The notes under the pieces are model-generated. The model worked only from the letters and a program-made list of their open reading frames with translations. It searched no databases and was not told where the DNA came from. A stretch of DNA of 32,000 nucleotides, taken from assembly GCF_000009965.1 (NCBI RefSeq), contig NC_006624.1, forward strand, positions 1,560,001 through 1,592,000. Reading direction: 5' to 3'. This document shows, piece after piece, positions 193-28,023 of this stretch. The stretch's first letter is position 1, and each line of letters begins with the position of its first letter. The DNA is from Thermococcus kodakarensis KOD1. Lineage in GTDB: Archaea; Methanobacteriota_B; Thermococci; Thermococcales; Thermococcaceae. A program made the position numbers and the translations under genes.

Positions 193-2073
193 TCAGCGGC
201 GTCTCCTCAGCAGCAACGGAATCACGGCCAGTCCCACCACGACCGCTGGGCCGCAGATGCCGCCGCCGTTGCTTGAGGATGTGGTGGAGCCCGAACCGGT
301 GTTGGTCTTTTCGGATGTTGGGGTTTTGCTGGTGGTTGTCTCACTGGTCGTGGTTGTAGTTGTCGAAACCTCCTGAGCATTGGCGGGCTTGACGCCGAGG
401 AGCGCAAGGGCGGTACCCCATGTGCCGTAGTTAGTCCAGAAGATCGGAACGCCGTAGGGGTTCTTCTCGTTCGGCCAGTTGATCCAGTACTCGGTGTTGG
501 CCTCGTAGAAGAGCGTTGCCATGTAAACGGGAACCGCAGGAACGTCCTGGAGCCATATCTGGCAGAGCTGCTTTATGTACTGGGCCTCCTTGTTCTCATC
601 CACGGTCTTTCCGAACTCCGCTAGAATCTGATCGACCTGTGGGTTCTCGTACTTTCCGTAGTTTGCACCGCCGTCCTTTGAGAGGAGCATGTTGAACACG
701 GCGTAGGCGCTCGGCTGGAAGGTGCCTGACCAGTGGAGCGCAAGGTCGAAGTCACCGTTCTGGAGGCTCTTAACGAAGAAGTTAGTCCAGTCTCCCTTCT
801 CTATCTCGACTTCAATCCCCACGGCCTTGAGCTGGTTGGCTATTATCTCACCCGCCTGGAGCCAGTCGTTACAACCTGCACAGGTGACAAATTTGAGCTT
901 GAGCGGCTTGCCGTTGTACTCCCTTATTCCATCGCCGTCGGTGTCCTTGACACCAGCCTCATCGAGGAGCTTTATCGCCCCGGCAACATCACCGTACTTC
1001 CATCCGTACTGACTGATGAGACCGTCGATACCAACCTTATCGCCCCATTTCTTGAGGAGACCGGGGCCGAAGGGAACCTCCTTCGGAAGGTCGCTTATCG
1101 GACCCTGGTTGACGATCTGATATGGGTTGATGGCCATCGCTATTGCCCTTCTAACCTTCGGGTTGTCGAGCGGAGCGTGCTTGGTGTTGAAGTACAGGAG
1201 AACGGGGGCAACGGGCGGGAAGTAGGGGTACTTGTCGAGCCAGCTCACGAGCTTGGGGTTCTTCTGCTTGGCCGAGACTATGTCGATGTAGTATGTACCG
1301 ACGTCGAGGTCACCCTTGATGAACATGTTCGCTGCCTGGTTGTTGTCGGTGACGTAGAGCTGGACGATGTACTTCGGTCCGGGCTTTCCAAATACCTTAA
1401 CACCCCACCAGTCGTCGTTCCTCTCGAGGATGGCCTTCTCCTGGCCGACTACCTCCTTGAGCTTGTAGGCACCAGAACCGACGAGGTACTTCATCTCATC
1501 GCCGGTGAAGGTCATCTTGGGTATGTCCTCGGGGTTAATGTTCTCGAAAACGTGCTTCGGGACTATGAGTGCACCCTGTCCCCAGCCGAAGAACATCTGA
1601 AGCTGCCAGAGCTGGTAGTTAGGGGTTCCGTCGAAGATGAACTGAACCGTCCTGTCATCAACGACCTTTATCTCCTTGAGGCCAAGGTCGCCCCAGTTCC
1701 TAAGGCCGATCTTCTCATAGTATTCATAGGAGAACTTGACGTCTTCAGCAGTTAGGGGTTCGCCGTCCTGCCACTTCAGACCCGACCTAAGTTTAACCTC
1801 AAAGACGTTGTCGCCAACCCACTTGCCGCTTTCGGCAAGCCACGGCTTGAGCTCGCCCGTCATGAAGTTGAACATGAAAAGTGGCTCGAAGACGAGGCCG
1901 TCTATTCCAAGAACCGAACCTCCAGTGAAGGGGTTGGCGTTCGTTGGGGGTGCACTGTTGGCAGTGTAGAGGGTCTCGTTCCTCGGCAGGCTCTCTGCGG
2001 CCAGACCGTACCCAGCCTCGAAGAGGCCGAGAATGAAAATCGCCACAAGGGCAACCGCGGTAGCTTTCTTCAT
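193..2073 (-). CDS. ABC transporter solute-binding protein (family 5, peptide/oligosaccharide type), probably chito-oligosaccharide receptor, with Ser/Thr linker and CGP-CTERM anchor
   Basis: The 630-aa ORF is trimmed to the ATG at 2073 (MKKATAVALVAIFILGLF signal peptide, GGTGGTG just upstream). Length and composition fit family-5 binding proteins. The C-terminus is TTTTTTSETTTSKTPTSEKTNTGSGSTTSSSNGGGICGPAVVVGLAVIPLLLRRRR. The substrate assignment rests only on the chitin-gene neighbourhood. Confidence 0.85.
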   Translation of the reverse strand: MKKATAVALVAIFILGLFEAGYGLAAESLPRNETLYTANSAPPTNANPFTGGSVLGIDGLVFEPLFMFNFMTGELKPWLAESGKWVGDNVFEVKLRSGLKWQDGEPLTAEDVKFSYEYYEKIGLRNWGDLGLKEIKVVDDRTVQFIFDGTPNYQLWQLQMFFGWGQGALIVPKHVFENINPEDIPKMTFTGDEMKYLVGSGAYKLKEVVGQEKAILERNDDWWGVKVFGKPGPKYIVQLYVTDNNQAANMFIKGDLDVGTYYIDIVSAKQKNPKLVSWLDKYPYFPPVAPVLLYFNTKHAPLDNPKVRRAIAMAINPYQIVNQGPISDLPKEVPFGPGLLKKWGDKVGIDGLISQYGWKYGDVAGAIKLLDEAGVKDTDGDGIREYNGKPLKLKFVTCAGCNDWLQAGEIIANQLKAVGIEVEIEKGDWTNFFVKSLQNGDFDLALHWSGTFQPSAYAVFNMLLSKDGGANYGKYENPQVDQILAEFGKTVDENKEAQYIKQLCQIWLQDVPAVPVYMATLFYEANTEYWINWPNEKNPYGVPIFWTNYGTWGTALALLGVKPANAQEVSTTTTTTSETTTSKTPTSEKTNTGSGSTTSSSNGGGICGPAVVVGLAVIPLLLRRRR

Positions 2074-2108
2074 GGACACCACCACTTATAAGGTTGGTCA
2101 ATTTTATA

Positions 2109-2307: not shown

Positions 2308-3762
2308 ATGAGGGAGTTTGCATGGGGCGTTGTCCAGTCGGCGTTTCAGTTTGAGATGGGAGATCCATTGAGGAGGTTTATAGACACTCGGACGGACTGG
2401 TGGCACTGGGTCCGCGATCCGCTCAACATAAAGAACGACCTCGTGAGCGGGCACCTGCCCGAGGACGGCATAAACAACTACGGCCTCTATGAGATAGACC
2501 ATCAGCTTGCAAAGGATATGGGACTGAACGCCTATCAGATAACGGTTGAGTGGAGCAGAATCTTTCCGTGTCCGACTTATGGAGTTGAAGTGGACTTCGA
2601 GAGGGACTCATACGGACTCATAAAAAGAGTGAAGATCACAAAGGAAACCCTCCACGAGCTTGAGGAAATCGCGAACGCAAAGGAAGTCGAGCACTACAGA
2701 GAGGTTCTCAAAAACCTAAAGGAACTCGGCTTTTCAACTTTCGTAACCCTAAACCACCAGACGCAGCCGATATGGCTCCACGATCCAATCCATGTGAGGG
2801 AAAACTTTGAAAAAGCAAGGGCTAAGGGATGGGTCGACGAGAGGGCCATCCTTGAGTTCGCCAAGTTCGCCGCTTTTGTTGCCTGGAAGCTTGGGGATCT
2901 AGTCGACTTCTGGGCAACCTTCGACGAGCCAATGGTTACGGTTGAGCTTGGCTACCTCGCTCCCTACGTCGGATGGCCGCCGGGGATACTTAACCCGAAG
3001 GCAGCTAAAGCAGTTATCATCAACCAGCTCGTTGGACACGCAAGGGCCTACGAGGCAGTTAAAACCTTCTCAGACAAGCCCGTCGGAATAATACTCAACA
3101 TAATCCCCGCTTACCCCCGCGACCCCAACGACCCTAAGGACGTTAAGGCAACGGAGAACTACGATCTCTTCCACAACAGGATATTCCTCGATGGAGTCAA
3201 CGAAGGGAAGGTTGATCTTGATTTCGATGGGAACTATGTCAAAATCGATCACTTGAAGAGAAACGACTGGATCGGCAACAACTACTACACCAGGGAGGTC
3301 ATTAGGTACACGGAACCCAAATACGAGGAGCTCCCGATAATAAACTTCGTGGGGACCGAAGGGTACGGTTACTCCTCGGAGCCTAACAGCGTCTCGAAGG
3401 ACAACAACCCCACGAGCGACTTTGGCTGGGAGTGCTTCCCGCAAGGAATGTACGATTCGATAATGATAGGAAACGAATACAGGAAGCCGATATACATAAC
3501 GGAGAACGGCATAGCCGATTCGAGAGATCTCCTAAGGCCGAGATATATAAAGGAGCATGTGGAGAAGATGTTCGAAGCAATTCAGGCTGGGGCCGATGTG
3601 AGGGGATACTTCCACTGGGCCCTGACCGACAACTACGAGTGGGCAATGGGTTTTAAAATCAAGTTCGGCCTCTATGAGGTTGATCCAATAAGCAAGCAGA
3701 GAATACCCCGCCCCAGAAGCGTGGAAACATACAAAAAGATAGTGCGGGAGGGATTACCTTGA
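2308..3762 (+). CDS. GH1 beta-glycosidase (BmnA-like active-site variant)
   Basis: 484 aa. GH1 hallmarks are present: N-terminal WGVVQSAFQFEMG, acid/base region TFDEP (E207) and nucleophile motif YITENGIAD. AGGTGG lies 5 nt upstream of the ATG, and a proximal TATA (AAATTATAAAAG) sits near 2264-2275. Confidence 0.9.
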   Translation: MREFAWGVVQSAFQFEMGDPLRRFIDTRTDWWHWVRDPLNIKNDLVSGHLPEDGINNYGLYEIDHQLAKDMGLNAYQITVEWSRIFPCPTYGVEVDFERDSYGLIKRVKITKETLHELEEIANAKEVEHYREVLKNLKELGFSTFVTLNHQTQPIWLHDPIHVRENFEKARAKGWVDERAILEFAKFAAFVAWKLGDLVDFWATFDEPMVTVELGYLAPYVGWPPGILNPKAAKAVIINQLVGHARAYEAVKTFSDKPVGIILNIIPAYPRDPNDPKDVKATENYDLFHNRIFLDGVNEGKVDLDFDGNYVKIDHLKRNDWIGNNYYTREVIRYTEPKYEELPIINFVGTEGYGYSSEPNSVSKDNNPTSDFGWECFPQGMYDSIMIGNEYRKPIYITENGIADSRDLLRPRYIKEHVEKMFEAIQAGADVRGYFHWALTDNYEWAMGFKIKFGLYEVDPISKQRIPRPRSVETYKKIVREGLP

Positions 3763-15225: not shown

Positions 15226-16575
<1,350 letters not shown>

Positions 16576-16613: not shown

Positions 16614-17516
16614 ATGAAGAAGACGACCGCTGCTGCACTGATGCTCATACTGCCCGGAATGGCCGCGTTCCTGTTCTTCAATCTCTGGCCGATAGTCTAC
16701 TCGATTTATTTAGCGTTCACGAACGCCCAGCTTGGAAACTTCCCCATCTACAACCCCCAGAGCGCAGTTGAACCCATGCATTTCGTAGGCCTAGAAAACT
16801 TCAAGTGGGCACTCTCTGACGACAAGTTCATCAACGCCTTCAAGTGGACGTGGATATTCGTATTCACGAGCGTCACACTGAAGGCCCTCGCAGGCCTATT
16901 CCTCAGCCTGCTCTACAACAGCAAGTACGTCAAGGGCAAGGCCATCTACAGGTCGCTCCTCATAATCCCCTGGGCGCTGCCGCTCCTCTTCTCGGTAACC
17001 GTGTGGAAGTTCATGTTTGATCCCGTTTTTGGCCCGATTAACCTTGTGCTCAAATCAATCGGCATTACCGGGCCCGACTGGGTGAACAACCCAACCTGGG
17101 GCTTCGTGGCCCTCAACATAATCGAGGTCTGGCTGGCCTATCCGTTTATGATGACCGTAATAACCGCCGCACTCCAGTCAGTTCCGGACACGTTAATCGA
17201 GGCGGCCATCATAGACGGAGCAAACTACTGGCAGAGAATTTGGAACGTCGTCGTCCCAATAGTTGGAAAGCCGATAGCCTTCGCGACCATACTCACGAGC
17301 GCCGCGAGCTTCCAGTACTTCATGGTGCCGTACATCTACAACGCGGGCCTCTTCGAGGACAGGTTCCTTCTGCTCTACGGCTTCAGGAAGGCATTCGGCG
17401 CCAGTCCGCACTACGGCAGGGCCGCGGCGATAATGGTGATAGCCACGCTCATCCTGGCGGTCTACATGTACGTGAACGTTAGGATAACCAGACTCCAGGA
17501 GGGTGCCAGGGGATGA
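16614..17516 (+). CDS. malF: Maltodextrin ABC transporter permease
   Basis: 300 aa, multi-TM, with the EAA loop LIEAAIIDGANYWQRIWNVVVPIVGKP. Confidence 0.85.
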   Translation: MKKTTAAALMLILPGMAAFLFFNLWPIVYSIYLAFTNAQLGNFPIYNPQSAVEPMHFVGLENFKWALSDDKFINAFKWTWIFVFTSVTLKALAGLFLSLLYNSKYVKGKAIYRSLLIIPWALPLLFSVTVWKFMFDPVFGPINLVLKSIGITGPDWVNNPTWGFVALNIIEVWLAYPFMMTVITAALQSVPDTLIEAAIIDGANYWQRIWNVVVPIVGKPIAFATILTSAASFQYFMVPYIYNAGLFEDRFLLLYGFRKAFGASPHYGRAAAIMVIATLILAVYMYVNVRITRLQEGARG

Positions 17517-18760
17517 TGGGCCGTAAGAGATCCGAGATGCTCAAGAGCTTCGTCCTGACGTTGCTGGCTATCTTCATAATGTTCATAATCCTCTTCCCAG
17601 TGTACTACATCTTCACAGTCTCGATAAGCCCAAAATCAACGCTCGCAACGACCGAGCTGGAGCTCATACCAAAGCAGGTCACCCTGGATTCGTACAGAGA
17701 AGTCCTCTTTGGATTCTCCGGCGACAGGTTGATGGAGGACTTTGAAGGAAGGATAACCGGAAAGGGAACAATTCAGAACGGCAAGCTCTACGTAACAGAC
17801 GGCACCTTAATCGGAACTGTAAAATACGGGCCTTTCACGGGCTTGAAGTTTGAGATTCCAGTTTCCAGGGCAACTTTCACCGTCAACGGCGGCTCCGGCA
17901 GTGGGGACTTCAGTGGAAATGTTAAAGGCACGATAATCCTGACGAGGATCAACGACGACGGAACTATAGGCTTTGGAATAGTCAGGAACGTCACACTCAC
18001 AGAGGGGACGATTAACGGAGTAAAGGTCAGCGGACAGATGGACGGGTACATTAGAGCGAGGGACACCGGAAAAGCAGAATTCACTGCCCTGGGCAAGTTC
18101 GTGAACTCCAACTTCTTCAAGTACCTGAAGAACAGCCTCATCCTGGCGACCCTTACGGTAGTACTGGCACTGATCTTCGTCGTCCCGGCGGCCTACGCCT
18201 TTTCAAGGCTCCAGTTCTTCGGCAGGGAGCACATACTCTACTTCTACCTGATGTTCACGCAGGTCTCGGGCGGTCTCGGGATAGCGGGACTTATAGCCCT
18301 CTACGGAATGCTCGTCAAGCTCGGCCTCTACGGCAAGCTTCCGGTGCTGGCCTTCATCTACGCCGCAGGAAGCGTGCCCTTCAATACGTGGCTCCTCAAG
18401 GGATACATAGACTCGATAAGCCCCGACTTCGACGAAGCAGCACTCGTTGACGGTGCAAACTACTTCCAGATAATCAGGCACGTGCTCCTTCCAATGGCAC
18501 TCCCGGGAATAGCGACGGTGGCAGTCTTTGCGTTCATCGGCGGATGGACGGAGTTCATCCTGGCAAGCCTCCTCCTGGGTCAGGAAAGCCAGCCGCTGGC
18601 GGTGTGGATATACTCACTCCTGGGTGGAATCGGCAGGGGAATTGACTGGAGCTACTTCGCTGCTGCGGCGCTGCTGTTCGCCCTGCCCGTGTTCGTGATG
18701 TTTATCCTCGCCCAGAACTACATAAGGAGCGGCCTCACTGTTGGAGGCCTTAAAGAGTGA
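17513..18760 (+). CDS. malG: Maltodextrin ABC transporter permease with large extracytoplasmic insertion
   Basis: 415 aa. The ATGA overlaps the malF stop. The EAA loop is FDEAALVDGANYFQIIRHVLLPMALPG. A roughly 135-aa non-membrane segment lies between TM1 and TM2 (about 17690-18100). Confidence 0.85.
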   Translation: MMGRKRSEMLKSFVLTLLAIFIMFIILFPVYYIFTVSISPKSTLATTELELIPKQVTLDSYREVLFGFSGDRLMEDFEGRITGKGTIQNGKLYVTDGTLIGTVKYGPFTGLKFEIPVSRATFTVNGGSGSGDFSGNVKGTIILTRINDDGTIGFGIVRNVTLTEGTINGVKVSGQMDGYIRARDTGKAEFTALGKFVNSNFFKYLKNSLILATLTVVLALIFVVPAAYAFSRLQFFGREHILYFYLMFTQVSGGLGIAGLIALYGMLVKLGLYGKLPVLAFIYAAGSVPFNTWLLKGYIDSISPDFDEAALVDGANYFQIIRHVLLPMALPGIATVAVFAFIGGWTEFILASLLLGQESQPLAVWIYSLLGGIGRGIDWSYFAAAALLFALPVFVMFILAQNYIRSGLTVGGLKE

Positions 18761-18769
18761 GGTGATAAG

Positions 18770-21700
18770 ATGAAGAAGCTGGTTTCCCTTTTCCTTACCA
18801 TTTTGGTGCTTGGAAGTATAATAGGAGCGAACGCCAAGTTCGCGCTGGCGGAAGAACCAAAGCCGCTGAACGTCATAATAGTCTGGCACCAGCACCAGCC
18901 CTACTACTACGACCCGATCCAAGATGTCTACACGAGGCCATGGGTCAGGCTCCACGCTGCCAACAACTACTGGAAGATGGCCCACTACCTAAGCGAATAT
19001 CCCGATGTGCACGTTGCAATCGACCTTTCGGGTTCACTCATAGCCCAGCTCGCTGATTATATGAACGGGAAGAAAGACACACACCAGATAATCACCGAGA
19101 AAATAGCCAACGGGGAGCCCCTGACCGTCGAAGACAAGTGGTTCATGCTCCAGGCTCCTGGAGGGTTCTTCGACCACACTATACCCTGGAACGGTGAACC
19201 CGTAACTGACCAGAACGGGAACCCGATAAGGGACTTCTGGGACAGGTACACAGAGCTTAAGAACAAGATGATGAACGCTAAGGCCAAGTACGCCAACCTT
19301 CCGCTGGAGGAGCAGAAGGTTGCTGTAACAAACGAGTTCACCGAGCAGGACTACATCGACCTGGCCGTCCTCTTCAACCTCGCCTGGATAGACTACGACT
19401 ACATAATGAACACCCCCGAGCTCAAGGCCCTCTACGAGAAGGTTGACGAAGGTGGCTACACGAGGGACGACGTTAAGACCGTCCTCAACGCTCAGCTCTG
19501 GCTTCTCAACCACACATTCGAGGAGCACGAGAAGATCAACTACCTCCTCGGCAACGGGAACGTTGAGGTCACCGTCGTCCCCTACGCCCACCCGATAGGG
19601 CCGATACTCAACGACTTCGGATGGGAGAGCGACTTTGACGCTCACGTCAAGAAGTCCCATGAGCTCTACAAGAAGTACCTCGGAGACGGAAGGGTTACTC
19701 CCCAGGGAGGCTGGGCGGCCGAGTCAGCCCTCAACGACAAGACCCTTGAAATCCTAGCGGAGAACGGCTGGCAGTGGGTTATGACCGACCAGCTCGTCCT
19801 CGACAGGCTCGGCGTAGAGAAGACGATCGAGAACTACCACAAGCCCTGGGTGGCCGAGTTCAACGGAAAGAAGATCTACCTGTTCCCCCGTGACCACGCC
19901 CTCAGCGACCGCGTTGGCTTTACCTACAGTGGAATGAACCAGTACCAGGCGGTTCAGGACTTCGTGAACGAGCTGCTAAAGCTCCAGAAGCAGAACTACG
20001 ACGGCTCTCTCGTCTACGTTGTCACTCTCGACGGTGAGAACCCCTGGGAGCACTATCCGTACGACGGCAAGCTATTCCTCGAGGAGCTCTACAAGAAGCT
20101 CACCGAGCTCCAGAACGCTGGACTGATAAAGACGCTCACCCCAAGCGAGTACATCAAGCTCTACGGCGACAAGGCGAAGGAGCTCACTCCGAAGATGATG
20201 GAGCGCCTCGACTTCACTACTGAGGACAAGGTGAATGCACTTCTCAAGGCCAAGAGCCTCGGAGAGCTCTACGACATGGTTGGAGTCCAGGAAGAGATGC
20301 AGTGGCCCGAGTCAAGCTGGATTGACGGAACGCTCTCCACCTGGATAGGCGAGCCCCAGGAGAACTACGGCTGGTACTGGCTCTATCAGGCAAGAAAGGC
20401 CCTCATGGAAAACAAAGATAAGATGAGCCAGGACGCCTGGAACAAGGCCTACGAGTACCTCCTCAGGGCAGAGGCGAGCGACTGGTTCTGGTGGTACGGC
20501 AACGACCAGGACAGCGGCCAGGACTACACCTTCGACCGCTACCTGAAGACCTACCTCTACGAGATCTACAAGCTGGCGGGAGTCGAGCCCCCGAGCTACC
20601 TCTACGGAAACTACTTCCCTGACGGCCAGCCATACATTACGAGGGCGCTCGACGGCCTTGGAGAGGGAGATAAGAAGGAGTACTCAAGCGAGTCAGCCCT
20701 CGCTAAGGGAGTTGAGGTCTACTTCGAGGGCGACGGCATCCACTTCCTTGTTAAAGGCGATCTGAACGAGTTCGAGGTCAGCCTCTCCAGCCCGGACGAG
20801 AGGATCGGCAACACGTTCACAATCCTCCAGAAGAGGCCGACCGAGCTGAGGTACTCGCTCTTCCCACTCTCAAAGGACAGCGTTGGCATGCTGATAACGA
20901 CCCACGTGGTCTATAAGGACGGGAAGGCCGAAGTTTACAAGGCCAAGGACTACGAGACAAGCGAGAAAGTTGGAGACGTTACGGCCAAAAAGACCGACGC
21001 CGGAGTTGAAGTCGTCGTTCCATTCGACTACCTCTCCAATCCGAGCGACTTCTACTTCGCGGTATCAACCGTAAACGAGAACGGTGAGCTGGAGGTAATA
21101 AGCTCACCGGTCGAGCTCAAGCTCCCCGTCCAGGTCAAGGGTGCAGTCATTGCTGACATCGCTGACCCTGAAGGAGATGACCACGGGCCTGGAACCTACA
21201 CCTACCCAACTGACTCGGTCTTCAAGCCAGGTGTCTTCGACCTCCTCCGCTTCAGGATGCTCGAACAGGCCGACAGCTACGTCATGGAGTTCTACTTCAA
21301 GGATCTCGGCGGCAACCCGTGGAACGGTCCAAACGGCTTCAGCCTCCAGATAATCGAGGTTTACCTTGACTTCAAGGAGGGAGGAAACAGCAGCGCAATA
21401 AAGATGTTCCCGGATGGGCCAGGAAGCAACGTGAATCTCGACCCGTTCCACCCCTGGGATGTAGCCCTCAGGATCGCTGGCTGGGACTACGGCAACTTGA
21501 TCGTCCTCCCGAACGGCACTGCCATACAGGGCGAGATGCAGATTTCAGCCGATCCAACCAAGAACTCAATAGTTGTGAAGCTCCCGAAGAAGTACTTCCC
21601 AGGAGTCTCTGACTACGGACTCTACGCCAGCGTCCTCGTAGGTTCGCAGGACGGCTATGGTCCGGACAAGTGGAGACCAGTTGCCGTTGAGGCGGAGCAG

Positions 21701-22072
21701 TGGAAGGGCGGTGGCGCCGACCCACAGGCAGTCATTGCCGGTGTCGCGCCGAGAGTTTACGACATGCTCGTCCCAGAGGGCTTCAAGCCAACCCAAGAAG
21801 AGCAGCTCAAAAGCTACGACACAGAAAACGGAAAACTAGCGACCGTAGTTATGATACCTCTCGTCGAGGGCACCGGCGGAGAGAAGCCCACCGAGACCGA
21901 GACCCCCACAAAGACGACCACAACGACGACGAGCAGCACCGAGACCACCACTACAAGCACCACCGAGACAGCCACAAACCACCACGACTACTACAACCAC
22001 ATCCCCAGGAGGAGGCGGAAGTGGCAGCGGATCCACCACTACCAGCACCTCCCCAGGCACCGGCGGTGGTGA
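18770..22072 (+). CDS. apu: GH57 amylopullulanase (type II pullulanase), secreted; C-terminus disrupted by a frame break
   Basis: 1100 aa. Signal peptide MKKLVSLFLTILVLGSIIGANA. GH57 motifs are present: VWHQHQPYY, GGWAAESALN, LDGENPWEHY, ASDWFWWYG. A Thr-rich linker near the C-terminus is followed by an aberrant His/Arg tail. GAGGTGAT lies upstream. Confidence 0.9.
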   Translation: MKKLVSLFLTILVLGSIIGANAKFALAEEPKPLNVIIVWHQHQPYYYDPIQDVYTRPWVRLHAANNYWKMAHYLSEYPDVHVAIDLSGSLIAQLADYMNGKKDTHQIITEKIANGEPLTVEDKWFMLQAPGGFFDHTIPWNGEPVTDQNGNPIRDFWDRYTELKNKMMNAKAKYANLPLEEQKVAVTNEFTEQDYIDLAVLFNLAWIDYDYIMNTPELKALYEKVDEGGYTRDDVKTVLNAQLWLLNHTFEEHEKINYLLGNGNVEVTVVPYAHPIGPILNDFGWESDFDAHVKKSHELYKKYLGDGRVTPQGGWAAESALNDKTLEILAENGWQWVMTDQLVLDRLGVEKTIENYHKPWVAEFNGKKIYLFPRDHALSDRVGFTYSGMNQYQAVQDFVNELLKLQKQNYDGSLVYVVTLDGENPWEHYPYDGKLFLEELYKKLTELQNAGLIKTLTPSEYIKLYGDKAKELTPKMMERLDFTTEDKVNALLKAKSLGELYDMVGVQEEMQWPESSWIDGTLSTWIGEPQENYGWYWLYQARKALMENKDKMSQDAWNKAYEYLLRAEASDWFWWYGNDQDSGQDYTFDRYLKTYLYEIYKLAGVEPPSYLYGNYFPDGQPYITRALDGLGEGDKKEYSSESALAKGVEVYFEGDGIHFLVKGDLNEFEVSLSSPDERIGNTFTILQKRPTELRYSLFPLSKDSVGMLITTHVVYKDGKAEVYKAKDYETSEKVGDVTAKKTDAGVEVVVPFDYLSNPSDFYFAVSTVNENGELEVISSPVELKLPVQVKGAVIADIADPEGDDHGPGTYTYPTDSVFKPGVFDLLRFRMLEQADSYVMEFYFKDLGGNPWNGPNGFSLQIIEVYLDFKEGGNSSAIKMFPDGPGSNVNLDPFHPWDVALRIAGWDYGNLIVLPNGTAIQGEMQISADPTKNSIVVKLPKKYFPGVSDYGLYASVLVGSQDGYGPDKWRPVAVEAEQWKGGGADPQAVIAGVAPRVYDMLVPEGFKPTQEEQLKSYDTENGKLATVVMIPLVEGTGGEKPTETETPTKTTTTTTSSTETTTTSTTETATNHHDYYNHIPRRRRKWQRIHHYQHLPRHRRW

Positions 22073-22151
22073 AGAGGGTGGCGGAATCTGCGGCCCGGCG
22101 TTCCTCGTCGGTCTCGCAGTAGTACCGCTCCTCCTCAGGAGGAGGCGCTGA
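21979..22151 (+). other. Out-of-frame (+1) continuation of the amylopullulanase linker plus CGP-CTERM anchor
   Basis: My hand translation of the +1 frame gives TTTTTTTTSPGGGGSGSGSTTTSTSPGTGGGEEGGGICGPAFLVGLAVVPLLLRRRR*, with the stop at 22149-22151. The last 24 residues match the binding-protein C-terminus (196-267) at 21 positions. Confidence 0.8.
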
Positions 22152-22182
22152 TCCCTTTCCAATTTTATTTGGGGGTGATAAA

Positions 22183-23301
22183 ATGGCGGAAGTAAAGCTC
22201 ATCAACGTCTGGAAGCAGTTTGGCGACTTCACGGCCGTTAAGGATATGAACCTCCACATAAAGGACGGCGAGTTCATGATACTCCTCGGTCCGAGCGGCT
22301 GTGGAAAAACCACTACTCTGAGAATGATAGCTGGCTTGGAAGAGCCGACGAAGGGCCAGATATACATAGGAGACAAGCTCGTCGCCGACCCCGAGAAAGG
22401 TATCTTTGTCCCGCCCAAGGACAGGGACATTGCCATGGTCTTCCAGAGCTACGCTCTCTATCCGCACATGACCGTCTACGACAACATAGCATTCCCACTC
22501 AAGCTGAGGAAGGTTCCAAAGGACGAGATCGACAGACGCGTCAGGGAAGTCGCTGAGATGCTCGGCCTCACGGAGCTCCTCAACAGAAAGCCAAGGGAGC
22601 TTTCAGGTGGACAGAGACAGCGTGTCGCCCTTGGAAGGGCCATCGTGAGAAAGCCGCAGGTCTTCCTCATGGACGAGCCGCTCTCGAACCTCGACGCCAA
22701 GCTGAGGGTGAAGATGCGTGCCGAACTCAAGAGGCTCCAGAGGCAACTCGGCGTCACCACCATCTACGTCACACACGACCAGGTCGAGGCAATGACGATG
22801 GGAGACAGGGTCGCCGTCATCAACCAGGGCCAGCTCCAGCAGGTAGGAACGCCTGAGGAGGTCTACGACAGGCCTGCGAACACATTCGTTGCAGGCTTCA
22901 TTGGAAGCCCGCCGATGAACTTCATGGACGCCACCGTTACAGAGGACGGCTTTGCAGACTTCGGCGAGTTCAGGCTGAAATTCCTCCCAGATCAGTTCGA
23001 AGTGCTCCGGGAGAAGAACCTCGTCGGCAGGGAGGTCATCTTCGGCATAAGGCCCGAGGACATCTACGACGCCCTCTTCGCCCAGGTCAAGATCCCAGGG
23101 GAAAACATGGCCAGAGCACTCGTGGAGATCATTGAGAACCTCGGTGGAGAGAAGATAGTACACCTGAGCATTGGTGACGTTACCTTCCTCGGCAAGTTCC
23201 CTGCCGAGTCAAGGGTTCAGGAAGGCCAGGAAGTTGACGTCGTCTTCGACATGAGGAAGGCCCACGTCTTCGAGAAGGGAAGCGGGAAGGCCGTCTTCTG
23301 A
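22183..23301 (+). CDS. malK: Sugar ABC transporter ATPase
   Basis: 372 aa. Walker A GPSGCGKTT, signature LSGGQRQRVALGRA and Walker B VFLMDEPLS are present, plus a C-terminal regulatory/TOBE-like domain. GGGGGTGAT lies upstream. Confidence 0.9.
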   Translation: MAEVKLINVWKQFGDFTAVKDMNLHIKDGEFMILLGPSGCGKTTTLRMIAGLEEPTKGQIYIGDKLVADPEKGIFVPPKDRDIAMVFQSYALYPHMTVYDNIAFPLKLRKVPKDEIDRRVREVAEMLGLTELLNRKPRELSGGQRQRVALGRAIVRKPQVFLMDEPLSNLDAKLRVKMRAELKRLQRQLGVTTIYVTHDQVEAMTMGDRVAVINQGQLQQVGTPEEVYDRPANTFVAGFIGSPPMNFMDATVTEDGFADFGEFRLKFLPDQFEVLREKNLVGREVIFGIRPEDIYDALFAQVKIPGENMARALVEIIENLGGEKIVHLSIGDVTFLGKFPAESRVQEGQEVDVVFDMRKAHVFEKGSGKAVF

Positions 23302-23333
23302 AGGTTTTTAAACCTCTTCTCCCATTTTTCTCC

Positions 23334-23735
23334 ATGCCAATCGAGGACTTCGCGGATTTTATAGCATCCAGGGTTCCGAAGGGAAAAGTCGTAGAGCTCG
23401 GAATAGGCTTTCAGTTCAAAGTGGCTCTAAGGTTAAAGGAGCTTGGCTACGACGTTCTTGCCGTTGACTGGAATCCCGCCTCGGTTGAGAAGGCCGGGGA
23501 GCTCGGGATCAACGCCGTTCGGGACGACCTCTTCAGCCCGAACCTAGAACTCTACCGCGGGGTTAAAGCCCTATACTCAGTCCGACCCACTCCTGAGATA
23601 GTGAGGTCCATCCTGGAACTTGGAAAAAAGCTGGGTGTTCCCGTCTATATTCTCCCGCTCGCCGGGGACGTCATGCCGAAAACCATGCGGCTCATCAACT
23701 ACCGAGGCCTGGCCATATACGTGAAAGATATTTAA
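23334..23735 (+). CDS. Small Rossmann/methyltransferase-like protein of unknown function (UPF0146-like by recollection)
   Basis: 133 aa. KVVELGIGFQFKVALRLKELGYDVLAVDWNP is a glycine-rich nucleotide-binding-type loop followed by an acidic residue at the end of beta-2. No recognisable catalytic motif. Confidence 0.55.
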   Translation: MPIEDFADFIASRVPKGKVVELGIGFQFKVALRLKELGYDVLAVDWNPASVEKAGELGINAVRDDLFSPNLELYRGVKALYSVRPTPEIVRSILELGKKLGVPVYILPLAGDVMPKTMRLINYRGLAIYVKDI

Positions 23736-23764
23736 GGTTCGTCTCAACTCCCTACGGTGGTGGT

Positions 23765-25117
23765 ATGAGGCTCTTTGGAACAGCGGGGATACGTGGAACC
23801 CTCTGGGAGAAAGTTACGCCAGAGCTCGCCATGAAGGTTGGAATGGCAGTCGGGACCTACAAGAGCGGGAAGGCCCTCGTCGGGAGGGACGGAAGGACTT
23901 CTAGTGTAATGCTGAAAAACGCCATGATCTCTGGTCTTCTGAGCACTGGGATGGAAGTCCTCGACGCGGACTTGATTCCCACTCCCGCACTAGCGTGGGG
24001 AACGAGGAAGCTCGCGGATGCTGGGGTTATGATAACGGCCAGCCACAACCCTCCCACGGACAACGGGGTAAAGGTCTTCAACGGCGATGGGACGGAGTTC
24101 TACGTCGAGCAGGAGAGGGGGCTTGAGGAGATAATCTTCTCCGGGAACTTCAGAAAGGCAAGGTGGGACGAGATAAAGCCCGTTAGGAATGTGGAGGTTA
24201 TCCCTGACTACATAAACGCGGTTCTGGACTTTGTTGGCCATGAAACGAACCTTAAAGTCCTCTACGACGGTGCCAATGGCGCCGGAAGCCTCGTCGCCCC
24301 CTACCTCCTGCGAGAGATGGGGGCGAAGGTCCTCAGCGTCAACGCCCACGTGGATGGCCACTTCCCGGGCAGGAAGCCGGAGCCGAGATATGAGAACATA
24401 GCCTACCTCGGAAAGCTGGTGAGGGAGCTGGGCGTTGACCTCGCGATAGCCCAGGACGGGGACGCTGATAGAATAGCCGTCTTCGACGAGAAGGGGAACT
24501 ACGTTGACGAGGACACCGTTATAGCGCTCTTCGCCAAGCTCTACGTTGAGGAGCACGGCGGCGGGACTGTAGTTGTGTCAATAGACACGGGCTCAAGGAT
24601 AGACGCGGTAGTTGAAAGGGCAGGCGGAAGGGTCGTGAGGATTCCGCTCGGACAGCCCCACGACGGCATAAAGCGATATAAAGCCATCTTCGCCGCTGAG
24701 CCCTGGAAGCTCGTCCACCCGAAGTTCGGACCATGGATAGACCCGTTCGTAACGATGGGTCTCCTCATAAAGCTCATAGACGAGAACGGCCCGCTGAGCG
24801 AGCTCGTCAAGGAGATTCCAACCTACTACCTGAAAAAGGCTAACGTCCTCTGTCCCGACGAATACAAGGCCGAGGTCGTTAGAAGGGCCGCCGAAGAGGT
24901 CGAGAGAAAGCTCTCCAGCGAGATAAAGGAAGTGCTAACTATCTCGGGCTTCAGGATTGCCCTGAACGACGGCTCGTGGATACTGATAAGGCCGAGCGGA
25001 ACCGAGCCCAAGATAAGGGTCGTGGCTGAGGCTCCAACCGAGAAGAGAAGGGACGAGCTGTTCGAGATGGCTTATTCAACAGTTTCTAGGATTGTAAAGG
25101 AAGCCGAAAAGAAATAA
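23765..25117 (+). CDS. Alpha-D-phosphohexomutase superfamily enzyme (phosphopentomutase/phosphoglucomutase type)
   Basis: 450 aa. Catalytic Ser loop ITASHNPPTDNG, Mg loop AQDGDADR and phosphate-binding RPSGTEPKIRV are present. I recall the KOD1 orthologue at this position being characterised as a phosphopentomutase. That is memory only. Confidence 0.85.
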   Translation: MRLFGTAGIRGTLWEKVTPELAMKVGMAVGTYKSGKALVGRDGRTSSVMLKNAMISGLLSTGMEVLDADLIPTPALAWGTRKLADAGVMITASHNPPTDNGVKVFNGDGTEFYVEQERGLEEIIFSGNFRKARWDEIKPVRNVEVIPDYINAVLDFVGHETNLKVLYDGANGAGSLVAPYLLREMGAKVLSVNAHVDGHFPGRKPEPRYENIAYLGKLVRELGVDLAIAQDGDADRIAVFDEKGNYVDEDTVIALFAKLYVEEHGGGTVVVSIDTGSRIDAVVERAGGRVVRIPLGQPHDGIKRYKAIFAAEPWKLVHPKFGPWIDPFVTMGLLIKLIDENGPLSELVKEIPTYYLKKANVLCPDEYKAEVVRRAAEEVERKLSSEIKEVLTISGFRIALNDGSWILIRPSGTEPKIRVVAEAPTEKRRDELFEMAYSTVSRIVKEAEKK

Positions 25118-25121
25118 AGAC

Positions 25122-25937
25122 TCAGACGAACCTCGCCGGCCTCAGGGTCCTTACCGCTATTTCCTTTTTGTTAACAGTTATCCTGAAGCCTTCCTTGGCG
25201 ACGTACGTCTTTACGCCGGTTACGTTCTCGATGTACTTTGCCTCCTTGTAGGGGTTGGCGAAGTGCATCTTCATCCCGATGTGGCTCATCACGAGGACTT
25301 CCGGCTTTTTCTCCATGCTCTTGAGCATCTCAACGGCGTCGTCAGTGCTCAGGTGGTAAGGAATGCCCATGTCCCTAGGTCTCGTTATTGCCGCTATCAG
25401 AACCCTAGCCCCATCATGCCAGCGGACGAGGTCGTCGAAGTACGCCGTGTCTGGAATGTAGGAGATATCACCGAGGGACGTCCTCATCCTGAAGCCTATT
25501 GTTGTTGGGTCGGAGTGCTTGCTCGGGGTTATCAGTAACTCCTCGTCTCCGATTGAAATCTTGCTTCCCGGCTCTGGGATGTGCACGCTCTCAAGGACGT
25601 TTATGTGATACTGGCTTATCGCCGGCGTGTGTTCCTCGTCGCCATAGACAACGCTCTTCGATGCTATCAAAACACCCCTCTTCTTCAGCGCTCCGCCGGT
25701 CATTGCCTCGACCATGACCTCAAGGTCGTTGCAGTGGTCGACGTGCCTGTGGGAGACGAAGATTGCATCCAGCTTCCTGGGGTCGAGCTTGTAGCGCCAG
25801 CTCCTGACCAGTGCTCCTGGCCCTGGGTCAACGTAGATGTTCCTGCTGGCCGCTATGTGGAATCCTCCCGTGGAGCGGAACTGGGTTATGGTGATGAACC
25901 TCCCCCCTCCGCTCCCGAGGAACGTAATCTCTATCAA
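25122..25937 (-). CDS. Metallo-beta-lactamase-fold hydrolase of unknown function (PhnP/PqqB-type COG by recollection)
   Basis: The ORF is trimmed to the TTG at 25937 (MIEITFLGSGGG, GGAGGTG 5 nt upstream, TTATATA about 50 nt upstream), giving 271 aa. The HxHxDH motif is SHRHVDHCND. Confidence 0.7.
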   Translation of the reverse strand: MIEITFLGSGGGRFITITQFRSTGGFHIAASRNIYVDPGPGALVRSWRYKLDPRKLDAIFVSHRHVDHCNDLEVMVEAMTGGALKKRGVLIASKSVVYGDEEHTPAISQYHINVLESVHIPEPGSKISIGDEELLITPSKHSDPTTIGFRMRTSLGDISYIPDTAYFDDLVRWHDGARVLIAAITRPRDMGIPYHLSTDDAVEMLKSMEKKPEVLVMSHIGMKMHFANPYKEAKYIENVTGVKTYVAKEGFRITVNKKEIAVRTLRPARFV

Positions 25938-26148
25938 AGGGACACCTCCCAGTTCTTTTGCAGACGTAAGAGTATCGCCTAGGGGGTATATAAGACATTG
26001 CCTACAGTCACGTCCATCAGCCCGCAATGGGGGAACCCGCCACTGCAACACAAGTTCGACGTCAAACCAGAAAACATCTGACAATACAAAACGTTTTTAT
26101 AAACCGGAGTACAAAGTGATATGCCATTTACTACAGGGGGTGCAACCC

Positions 26149-28023
26149 ATGGAGTTCAAACCATATATTCCCCCAGAGAAATCCCTGCCTGAATATACCG
26201 TAAAGGCGTTTGTTCTGGGCGTCCTTCTATCGATAGTGATGGGTGCTGCCAACGCCTACCTCGGAATGTACGCAGGAATGACCGTCAGTGCAAGCATTCC
26301 CGCAGCGGTTATCTCAATGGCGATACTCTTGGCTTTCAAGGACAGGAACATCCTTGAGAACAACATGGTTCAGACGGCGGCCTCCGCAGGCGAATCGCTC
26401 GCTGCTGGAGTCATATTCACCTTCCCTGCCCTAGTAGTTCTCGAGTACTACACCACGTTCCCATACTACATCGTGACAATCATAGCAGCGCTCGGTGGCT
26501 CCCTCGGTGCACTCTTCACGGTCGTACTGAGAAGGGCTTTTATAGTCGAGGAGAAGCTCCCCTATCCAGAAGGTACCGCCTGTGCCGAAGTTCTTATAGC
26601 TGGCGATAAGGGTGGAAGCCACGCCAAACCGATATTCTACGGTGGAATCTTCGGCGGCATCTACAAGCTCCTGGGCCAGACGGGCCTGTGGAGCGGAACA
26701 GTTGAGACCGCCAAGATGATAGGTTCCCGCGTCTACTACTTCGGAAGCGACCTCTCCGCGGCCCTCGTTGCCGTCGGTTACATTGTTGGTCTCAACATAG
26801 CGTTCCTGGTATTCCTCGGTGGTGCAATAGCATGGTTCATAGCGATACCCCTCTATGCAGGCCAGATGGGCTCAACCGACATGAGTGCCCTCGACCTTGC
26901 CTGGACGATATGGAGTACCAAGATCCGCTACATGGGTGTCGGTGCGATGGTCGTCGGCGGCCTGTGGAGCCTCATCAAGCTCAGGGGGCCGATAACCAGG
27001 GGCATCAAGGCGGGTCTTGAGGCTGCAAAGAGAAGGCAGGCTGGAGAGGCAGTTCTTAGAACTGAAGAAGACCTTCCGCTCAACTACGTCCTTATCCTTA
27101 TAGCAGCCTTTGCAATACCGCTGTTCCTGCTCTACTACCACATCATAGGCTCAATCGGAATTGCCGCAGTTATGGCCGTGATACTCCTTATCGTCGGCTT
27201 CCTTGGAAGCGCGATAGCTGGCTACCTCGCGGGTGTCGTCGGGTCATCAAACAATCCAGTTTCAGGAATCACCATAATGAGCCTTCTCTTCACGGCCCTT
27301 GTGCTAAAAGCCCTTGGCCTCTCCGGAACTGAGGGCATGGTGGCCACGATCCTCGTCGCGGCGGTTATCTGTACCGCAGCTGCCATAGCAGGCGACACGA
27401 TGCAGGATCTCGCAACAGGTTACCTCGTTGGAGCGACGCCGAAGAGACAGCAGGTCTTTGAAATCATTGGAACGTTTGCCGCGGCCCTCGTTATGGCTCC
27501 CGTGCTCAACCTCCTCATAGAGGCCTACGGAATAGCCGGAACACCAACAGCCAAAGAAAACGCCCTCGCGGCACCCCAAGCCTTCCTCATGGCCAAGGTC
27601 ACCGAGGGTGTCTTCACCGGAAACCTGGAGTGGAAGATGGTCTACATAGGTGCAGGCATTGCAATAGCCCTCATAATCGTTGATGAGATACTCGCAATGA
27701 AGAAGGCAAAGTTCAGGACTCCCGTCATGCCCGTTGCGGTCGGTATCTACCTGCCGCTCAGCCTTGGTGTCCCAATATTCATAGGCGGTCTGATAAGGCA
27801 CTTCGCCAGCAAAGCCAAGGGCAACGGTGGAGAGGACATGACCGACGCTGGAGTCCTCGGTGCGGCAGGACTAATAGCCGGTGAGGCCCTAATGGGCATT
27901 ATCTTCGCGGCCCTCATCGTTGCCAACGTAGCGCCGAGCGTCGGGTTCACCAGCAACGTCCTTGGAGTCCTCCTCCTAGCCGGAATTGTTATCTGGCTCT
28001 ACATGATGGGCAAGAAGAAGTGA
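26149..28023 (+). CDS. OPT-family (oligopeptide transporter superfamily) membrane transporter
   Basis: The ORF is trimmed to the ATG at 26149 (MEFKPYIPPEKSLPEYTVKAFVLGVLLS, GGGGGTG 6 nt upstream, TTTTTATAAA at 26095-26104). It is 624 aa and polytopic, with the Gly/Ala-rich helices typical of prokaryotic OPT proteins. Confidence 0.85.
   Translation: MEFKPYIPPEKSLPEYTVKAFVLGVLLSIVMGAANAYLGMYAGMTVSASIPAAVISMAILLAFKDRNILENNMVQTAASAGESLAAGVIFTFPALVVLEYYTTFPYYIVTIIAALGGSLGALFTVVLRRAFIVEEKLPYPEGTACAEVLIAGDKGGSHAKPIFYGGIFGGIYKLLGQTGLWSGTVETAKMIGSRVYYFGSDLSAALVAVGYIVGLNIAFLVFLGGAIAWFIAIPLYAGQMGSTDMSALDLAWTIWSTKIRYMGVGAMVVGGLWSLIKLRGPITRGIKAGLEAAKRRQAGEAVLRTEEDLPLNYVLILIAAFAIPLFLLYYHIIGSIGIAAVMAVILLIVGFLGSAIAGYLAGVVGSSNNPVSGITIMSLLFTALVLKALGLSGTEGMVATILVAAVICTAAAIAGDTMQDLATGYLVGATPKRQQVFEIIGTFAAALVMAPVLNLLIEAYGIAGTPTAKENALAAPQAFLMAKVTEGVFTGNLEWKMVYIGAGIAIALIIVDEILAMKKAKFRTPVMPVAVGIYLPLSLGVPIFIGGLIRHFASKAKGNGGEDMTDAGVLGAAGLIAGEALMGIIFAALIVANVAPSVGFTSNVLGVLLLAGIVIWLYMMGKKK

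Follow-up and report, generated by a model that had tools for sequence, protein, structure and literature searches.

Does the amylopullulanase of Thermococcus kodakarensis KOD1 really stop one reading frame short of its own surface anchor? The stretch of DNA analysed here (the window: 32,000 nucleotides of the forward strand, positions 1,560,001 to 1,592,000 of NC_006624.1 in the reference assembly GCF_000009965.1) contains gene TK1774, which encodes that enzyme. As deposited, the threonine-rich linker near its C-terminal end is broken at a run of three A residues, and its continuation, with a CGP-CTERM sorting signal at the end of it, lies in the +1 frame. Assemblies of public sequencing reads have two A residues at this site, and with two the gene is continuous. 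The third A, at 21976-21978, is very probably a mistake in the KOD1 reference, a Sanger sequence of 2005, the true gene having AA and encoding an uninterrupted protein of 1126 residues.

A sorting signal in the wrong frame

Translation of the window yields an open reading frame (ORF) of 1100 residues at 18770-22072 of the plus strand, with its stop codon at 22070-22072. An exact look-up identifies the product as BAD85963.1/UniRef100_Q5JJ55, the GH57-family amylopullulanase TK1774 of T. kodakarensis KOD1. The ORF reads through TKTTTTTTSSTETTTTSTTETAT, after which the 0 frame gives NHHDYYNHIPRRRRKWQRIHHYQHLPRHRRW and stops; this spurious, basic, His/Arg-rich tail of 31 residues (21977-22072, plus strand) belongs to the reference annotation of the gene only, and a profile search found no family match for it. 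The codon for T1069 is ACA at 21974-21976, and the run with one surplus A, on the plus strand at 21976-21978, is reference position 1580984 (T1069fs). From 21978 the +1 frame reads TTTTTTTTSPGGGGSGSGSTTTSTSPGTGGGEEGGGICGPAFLVGLAVVPLLLRRRR and ends at a stop codon at 22149-22151. Removing one A (a virtual fusion) gives the protein of 1126 residues encoded by 3381 nt, which is the state of the whole gene on resequencing (18770-22151, plus strand); as deposited, the same region is 3382 nt long and out of frame beyond 21976. Codon-usage log-odds after the break do not separate the frames on this short stretch of low complexity: over an equal length the 0 frame has 0.10 and the +1 frame 0.04, and the +1 segment taken whole has 0.22.

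An earlier note on this DNA, made from the letters alone, had described a GH57 amylopullulanase whose Thr linker is interrupted by a +1 break at AAA, with a complete CGP-CTERM beyond it; that anatomy is correct. The ORF, the linker, the His/Arg tail, the position of the AAA run and the two stops at 22072 and 22151 all hold on re-translation, as does the enzyme of 1126 residues on removal of an A. The +1 continuation of the linker into the CGP tail stands too; only its start had been misplaced by one base, at 21979, from which translation runs in the third frame (PPRLLQ...), the correct start being 21978.

CGP-CTERM is a tripartite signal of 20 residues that is specific to the Thermococcales and typically follows a Thr/Ser-rich stretch (Haft, bioRxiv 10.1101/2023.06.07.544157). 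With the corresponding NCBIfam profile, TIGR04288 (CGP_CTERM; curated cut-off 21 bits), the tail in the +1 frame reaches 36.7 bits (E = 3e-9) and the fused 1126-residue protein 31.8 bits. The signal itself, ICGPAFLVGLAVVPLLLRRRR with its stop codon, occupies 22086-22151 of the plus strand, in the +1 frame of the window. It has the expected tripartite layout (ICGP-AFLVGLAVVPLLL-RRRR, coming after ...TTTSTSPGTGGGEEGGG), and the protein's N-terminus, MKKLVSLFLTILVLGSIIGANAKFALA, is signal-peptide-like by inspection. A comparator is in the window itself: an Opp/Dpp-type substrate-binding protein encoded on the minus strand ends in an in-frame CGP-CTERM (193-267 with its stop; 30.9 bits with TIGR04288). 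The last 24 residues of the TK1774 tail, GGGICGPAFLVGLAVVPLLLRRRR, are identical to the end of that protein, GGGICGPAVVVGLAVIPLLLRRRR, at 21 positions, which confirms the agreement with 196-267 that had been pointed out from the letters. Judged by profile score and alignment, the +1 tail is, beyond chance, a bona fide and undegraded CGP-CTERM domain. At the extreme C-terminus and in frame it is found with the AA allele of all the read-based assemblies, and not in the deposited window. When a functional module is kept perfectly one frame off its own protein, the first reading should be a sequence error.

Two A residues in the read-based assemblies

The repaired protein of 1126 residues (P0001) is found exactly (100% over 1126 residues) on 79 contigs and in 119 index blocks, and in Logan assemblies, that is to say assemblies of public sequencing runs, only. 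The 1100-residue product is found on one contig only, of 2,088,737 bp, in NCBI/UniRef/nr, and an exact look-up gives no entry for it in the gene-position index, because the gene has no product in NCBI-annotated genomes. The neighbouring MalK occupies 157-158 index blocks; the shortfall to 119 is probably made up of short contigs that could not hold a gene of 3.4 kb, along with a few variants.

The DNA of seven samples was compared with the window, and all seven have AA: DRR794397, DRR794367, DRR794414, SRR29007085, SRR29948418, SRR29948422 and SRR29948425 (loci L001-L007, L009 and L011-L015). The comparison with DRR794397 extends over 23.2 kb (8770-32000 of the window) and turns up a sole difference, one A fewer at 21976-21978. 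The missing A is, again, the single difference from the window in DRR794367, DRR794414 and SRR29007085. A second marker, deltaG, distinguishes these samples and serves as an internal control: a run of five G at 26136-26140 (reference 1585144), situated 10 nt before the start codon (ATG at 26150) of an OPT-family transporter gene, is G5 in DRR794397, DRR794414 and SRR29007085 and G4 in SRR29948422, with AA common to both groups. DeltaG behaves as a genuine lineage-specific marker, in a probable ribosome-binding region, and there are at least two lineages among the samples.

The frame discrepancy in TK1774 is already known, having been published in 2017. Gehring et al. (2017, Front Microbiol 8:2084; PMC5663688) sequenced strain TS559 to 3,300-7,800x with Illumina reads and found 35 single-nucleotide differences from the KOD1 reference. 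Their Table 1, which is headed 'mutations acquired since isolation', has the entry 1580984 / TK1774 / deltaA / T1069fs, with both C-termini spelled out, and also lists deltaG at 1585144. A literature search on coordinate 1580984, on reports of KOD1 resequencing or 'sequencing error' and on KU216 whole-genome data produced only this paper; a PacBio restriction-modification paper is without a variant list. The earlier note had said that reads with AA instead of AAA would tell against the break as a feature of the gene: AA is what seven of seven assemblies and the published TS559 data have.

Other variants in the same samples call for separate mention. In SRR29948418 the C4 run at 22048-22051 is one C short, a private deltaC that severs the CGP-CTERM again (P0125, 1116 residues, with a tail that ends …TSTSQAPAVVKRVAESAARRSSSVSQ and a stop), and SRR29948425 has A->G at 22072, changing Glu to Gly (P0124). 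These two private variants (22051 and 22072) in 13.4 kb both fall in one 22-bp stretch of linker DNA and may be assembly noise in GC-rich DNA of low complexity, or a mutational hot spot. SRR29948422 has C5 at 25897-25902, where the window has C6, near the 5' end of a minus-strand Lactamase_B_2 gene, and its product goes from 271 to 291 residues; this difference is absent from Table 1 of Gehring et al. (PMC5663688).

The frame that is conserved among orthologues, a check that had been proposed from the letters, is the CGP-CTERM frame: of the 35 Thermococcales orthologues nearest to TK1774, three are truncated or partial, and all 32 others finish with a Thr/Ser linker and an in-frame CGP-CTERM. 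AA is also present in a related natural strain (GCA_001316165.1, BBCU01000013.1), which is otherwise identical to the window over 290 bp around the site. Over 6.9 kb there are 95 differences between the two sequences, for the most part spaced by 3 nt; the same 6.9 kb of the assembly has 57 indel columns, mostly extra G or C in runs, and its amylopullulanase and malK genes are spread over several ORFs. Its support for AA is weak, the assembly being rich in homopolymer indels. Just two proteins end in the His/Arg tail, the reference protein (P0121) and P0036, a product of 625 residues from GCA_001316165.1. The latter was considered as an orthologue backing the 0 frame and was rejected: its DNA has AA, and it reaches the tail by way of an upstream frameshift. 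P0036 is a trap for a homology-based 'confirmation' of the His/Arg tail.

The origin of the third A

The AA allele, with an intact ORF and family matches, is what all the read-based data contain, and an error is the most likely origin of the extra A. It would have come from base-calling, from assembly or from a cloned template. Independent sequencing of the strain lineage has not reproduced AAA, and correcting it restores a conserved full-length product. Comparison of the sequences also indicates the polarity: the intact AA state is to be read as ancestral, because no chance deletion could produce a CGP-CTERM that is in frame and preceded by a Thr linker that fits it. T. kodakarensis, as known from sequencing after 2005, does not have the frame break as a biological feature.

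Several observations weigh against a reference error. The run is just three A residues long, which is no classic context for homopolymer errors, and a real mutation in the sequenced DNA or clone cannot be distinguished from a base-calling error without the raw traces of 2005. None of the public runs is demonstrably wild-type KOD1; moreover, KU216, KW128 and TS559 share one KOD1-derived ancestry according to the strain table of PMC13385129. Finally, a complete genome at NCBI, CP116885.1 (2,085,702 bp), also has AAA. It is the genome of strain TS900, a derivative of TS559, and the paper (PMC13385129) leaves unstated how the deposited sequence was produced.

CP116885.1 was considered as an independent confirmation of AAA and was rejected. 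Over 6,809 bp (19338-26146 of the window) its identity with the KOD1 reference is 100%, including AAA, G5 and C6 at 25897-25902, and it lacks both of the markers (deltaA and deltaG) that have been published for its parent, TS559; the TS559-like read assembly SRR29948422 has AA, G4 and C5. Being identical to the reference at every site that was checked and without its parent's markers, the sequence appears to have been templated on the reference and is, therefore, not independent evidence. In its annotation, 66 nt corresponding to 22086-22151 of the window (2749-2814 of locus L016) are called as a stand-alone gene for 21 residues and the body of the enzyme has no product; this orphan CGP-CTERM gene is an annotation artefact of the surplus base.

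Three explanations had been offered in the earlier note, namely an error of sequence or assembly, a real mutation releasing the enzyme from the cell, and recoding. The first of these is upheld and the third is not; the second could apply to the DNA of 2005 only, and to no culture sequenced later. A real +A allele, private to that DNA, would have released the enzyme with its basic tail of 31 residues, while the stocks ancestral to KU216, KW128, TS559 and the other sequenced cultures kept AA. AAA does stand in the deposited record, the downstream signal is undegraded, as would be expected if the mutation were very recent, and the separate deltaC at 22051 in SRR29948418, which also severs the anchor, suggests that such variants may arise. 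We nevertheless regard a private allele as unlikely: no read-based assembly has AAA, as against AA on 79 contigs and in 119 blocks, and the two lineages told apart by the G-run marker both have AA. Differences from the reference that cluster in Gehring's list (327973/327976, 1160792/1160804 and three in TK2030) read, besides, as stretches where the reference is of low quality. Less likely again is that AAA was real in the 2005 culture and that the linker, which is repetitive and GC-rich, is an indel hot spot at which the amylopullulanase is repeatedly unhooked, deltaC at 22051 being another example; in that event cultures would hold cell-bound and released variants of the enzyme together.

The opposite polarity, with KOD1 truly AAA and the laboratory lineage extending the ORF by losing one A, is implied by the heading in PMC5663688 under which the difference is listed. 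It is very improbable, since a deletion of one base cannot yield an in-frame CGP-CTERM of 36.7 bits after a Thr linker, and since so precise a reversion would need to have been fixed without evident selection. Assemblies without the TS559-specific deltaG, and a separate natural strain, have AA as well. For programmed +1 recoding, in which a ribosomal shift at ACA-AAC-C would make the anchored form from the AAA gene, there is the open +1 frame and nothing further, and its probability is practically nil: the strains in use are free of the frameshift, which excludes recoding, and none of the 32 complete orthologues has it either. The earlier note saw no classical slippery heptamer, and there is indeed no X XXY YYZ at the site. 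Nor is AAC a hungry codon, being among the commonest in the window's genes (37 per 1000 codons), and the 100 nt downstream, with a fold z of -0.54 relative to shuffled sequence, offer no stimulator. A run of three A residues is also too short for transcriptional slippage. Thus, a reference error is the explanation to be preferred.

The intact enzyme, its operon and known systems

In its corrected form TK1774 starts with a predicted Sec signal peptide (18770-18850, plus strand), MKKLVSLFLTILVLGSIIGANAKFALA / EEPKPLNVII, assigned by inspection of the sequence and by analogy with PF1935*, the orthologue in Pyrococcus furiosus. There, …NNIVKA/EEPKPLNVII is the predicted signal peptidase I (SPI) cleavage site (PMC3824201), and the match suggests that the junction …ALA/EEPKPLNVII is the cleavage site in TK1774 also. 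The GH57 catalytic domain follows at residues 36-475 (18875-20194, plus strand; Pfam PF03065, 242 bits), and a glucodextranase-type C-terminal domain (DOMON-like, Glucodextran_C) at residues 794-1027 (21149-21850, plus strand; Pfam PF09985, 267 bits). With both of these domains, and with 69-84% identity to named amylopullulanases of Thermococcus and Pyrococcus, the protein belongs among the GH57 amylopullulanases; activity of recombinant TK1774 is attributed to Guan et al. 2013, as cited in PMC4321091. The Thr/Ser/Gly-rich linker, at residues ~1040-1105 of the intact protein (21887-22085, plus strand), spans the frame break.

The gene lies in the mal operon, directly downstream of malE (15229-16575), malF (16614-17516) and malG (17513-18760), all on the plus strand. 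The gene for the MalK ATPase (22183-23301, plus strand; ABC_tran, OB_MalK and TOBE_2 domains) starts 31 nt past the true TK1774 stop, and TK1770, encoding a cyclodextrinase of 656 residues, is among the neighbouring genes. MalE has an N-terminal lipobox that is followed by a Thr/Ser/Pro linker of 40 residues (15229-15450). MalE is thus anchored at its N-terminal end, and the TK1774 enzyme, encoded three genes downstream, would be anchored at its C-terminal end through CGP-CTERM, with Thr-rich spacers in both. The Opp/Dpp-type substrate-binding protein with a CGP-CTERM of its own (193-2085, minus strand) is a candidate for TK1760 (YP_184173 by accession arithmetic). It fits the description of that entry in PMC4870337, a stationary-phase proteome study in which a CGP-CTERM protein similar to ABC substrate-binding proteins is listed at -4.31.

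What the anchor would do is suggested by comparative analysis of the CGP-CTERM family, according to which the invariant Cys probably receives a lipid and the signal is probably cut by MrtA (NF040590), an Rce1-like intramembrane protease that is present in one copy in 27 of 27 CGP-CTERM-bearing Thermococcales genomes of the set analysed there (Haft, bioRxiv 10.1101/2023.06.07.544157). The 1126-residue enzyme would be exported through its N-terminal Sec signal peptide, with O-glycosylation probable in the Thr/Ser-rich spacer. By analogy with tripartite signals of other kinds that contain a Cys, the CGP-CTERM Cys would be lipid-modified and the signal cleaved by MrtA; the debranching enzyme would then be tethered at the cell surface beside the lipid-anchored MalE and the MalFGK transporter. 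Lipidation, cleavage and tethering are, on this analogy, predicted for TK1774.

The value of the correction is mainly one of database hygiene. The NCBI and UniProt entries for TK1774 (BAD85963.1/Q5JJ55) have a meaningless basic tail of 31 residues and are without the surface-anchor signal; in the collection that was searched, the correct sequence of 1126 residues is reached through read assemblies only, and AAA propagates, being repeated by the 2023 genome record CP116885.1. For counts of CGP-CTERM substrates, models of starch degradation, proteomics searches and expression of 'full-length' TK1774, the 1126-residue sequence is preferable. In proteomics data, peptides from TTTTTTTTSPGGGGSGSGSTTTSTSPGTGGGEEGGGIC would point to the intact 1126-residue protein and those from NHHDYYNHIPR… to the His/Arg tail, with the proviso that peptides from the linker may be hidden by glycosylation.

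Among known systems, programmed ribosomal frameshifting (the +1 shift of bacterial prfB and the -1 shift of a Sulfolobus fucosidase gene are examples) resembles the deposited TK1774 in that two overlapping frames jointly encode one sensible protein. In contrast, the shift in TK1774 is not conserved, has neither slippery site nor stimulator, and is absent from resequenced strains. The CGP-CTERM/MrtA system is resembled by the TK1774 tail, which has the Cys-Gly-Pro, the hydrophobic helix and the Arg cluster at the extreme C-terminus of a secreted Thermococcales protein; it differs in that the signal is out of frame with its own protein in the deposited window. That MrtA processes the signal and that its Cys is lipidated are computational predictions even across the whole family.

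The P. furiosus counterpart is an orthologous GH57 amylopullulanase in an orthologous mal operon, and there the reference was also split: pf1934 and pf1935 were later merged, having been recognised as a continuous pf1935* (Lee et al. 2006, as cited in PMC3824201). The split is at another position, in another genome. Mature PF1935* was found in the culture supernatant with 52 unique peptides (PMC3824201), so the orthologue reaches the medium however it is anchored, and this abundance outside the cell suggests that the contrast between 'attached' and 'released' may be less sharp for TK1774 than has been supposed. The closest precedent is the analysis of Gehring et al. (2017), which concerns exactly this base of TK1774 and the two C-termini given above. 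It is framed as KOD1 versus TS559, without discussion of polarity and without naming CGP-CTERM. What is added here is the polarity, with the evidence pointing to AA as the ancestral state, the naming of the tail as CGP-CTERM, and a later GenBank genome that repeats AAA.

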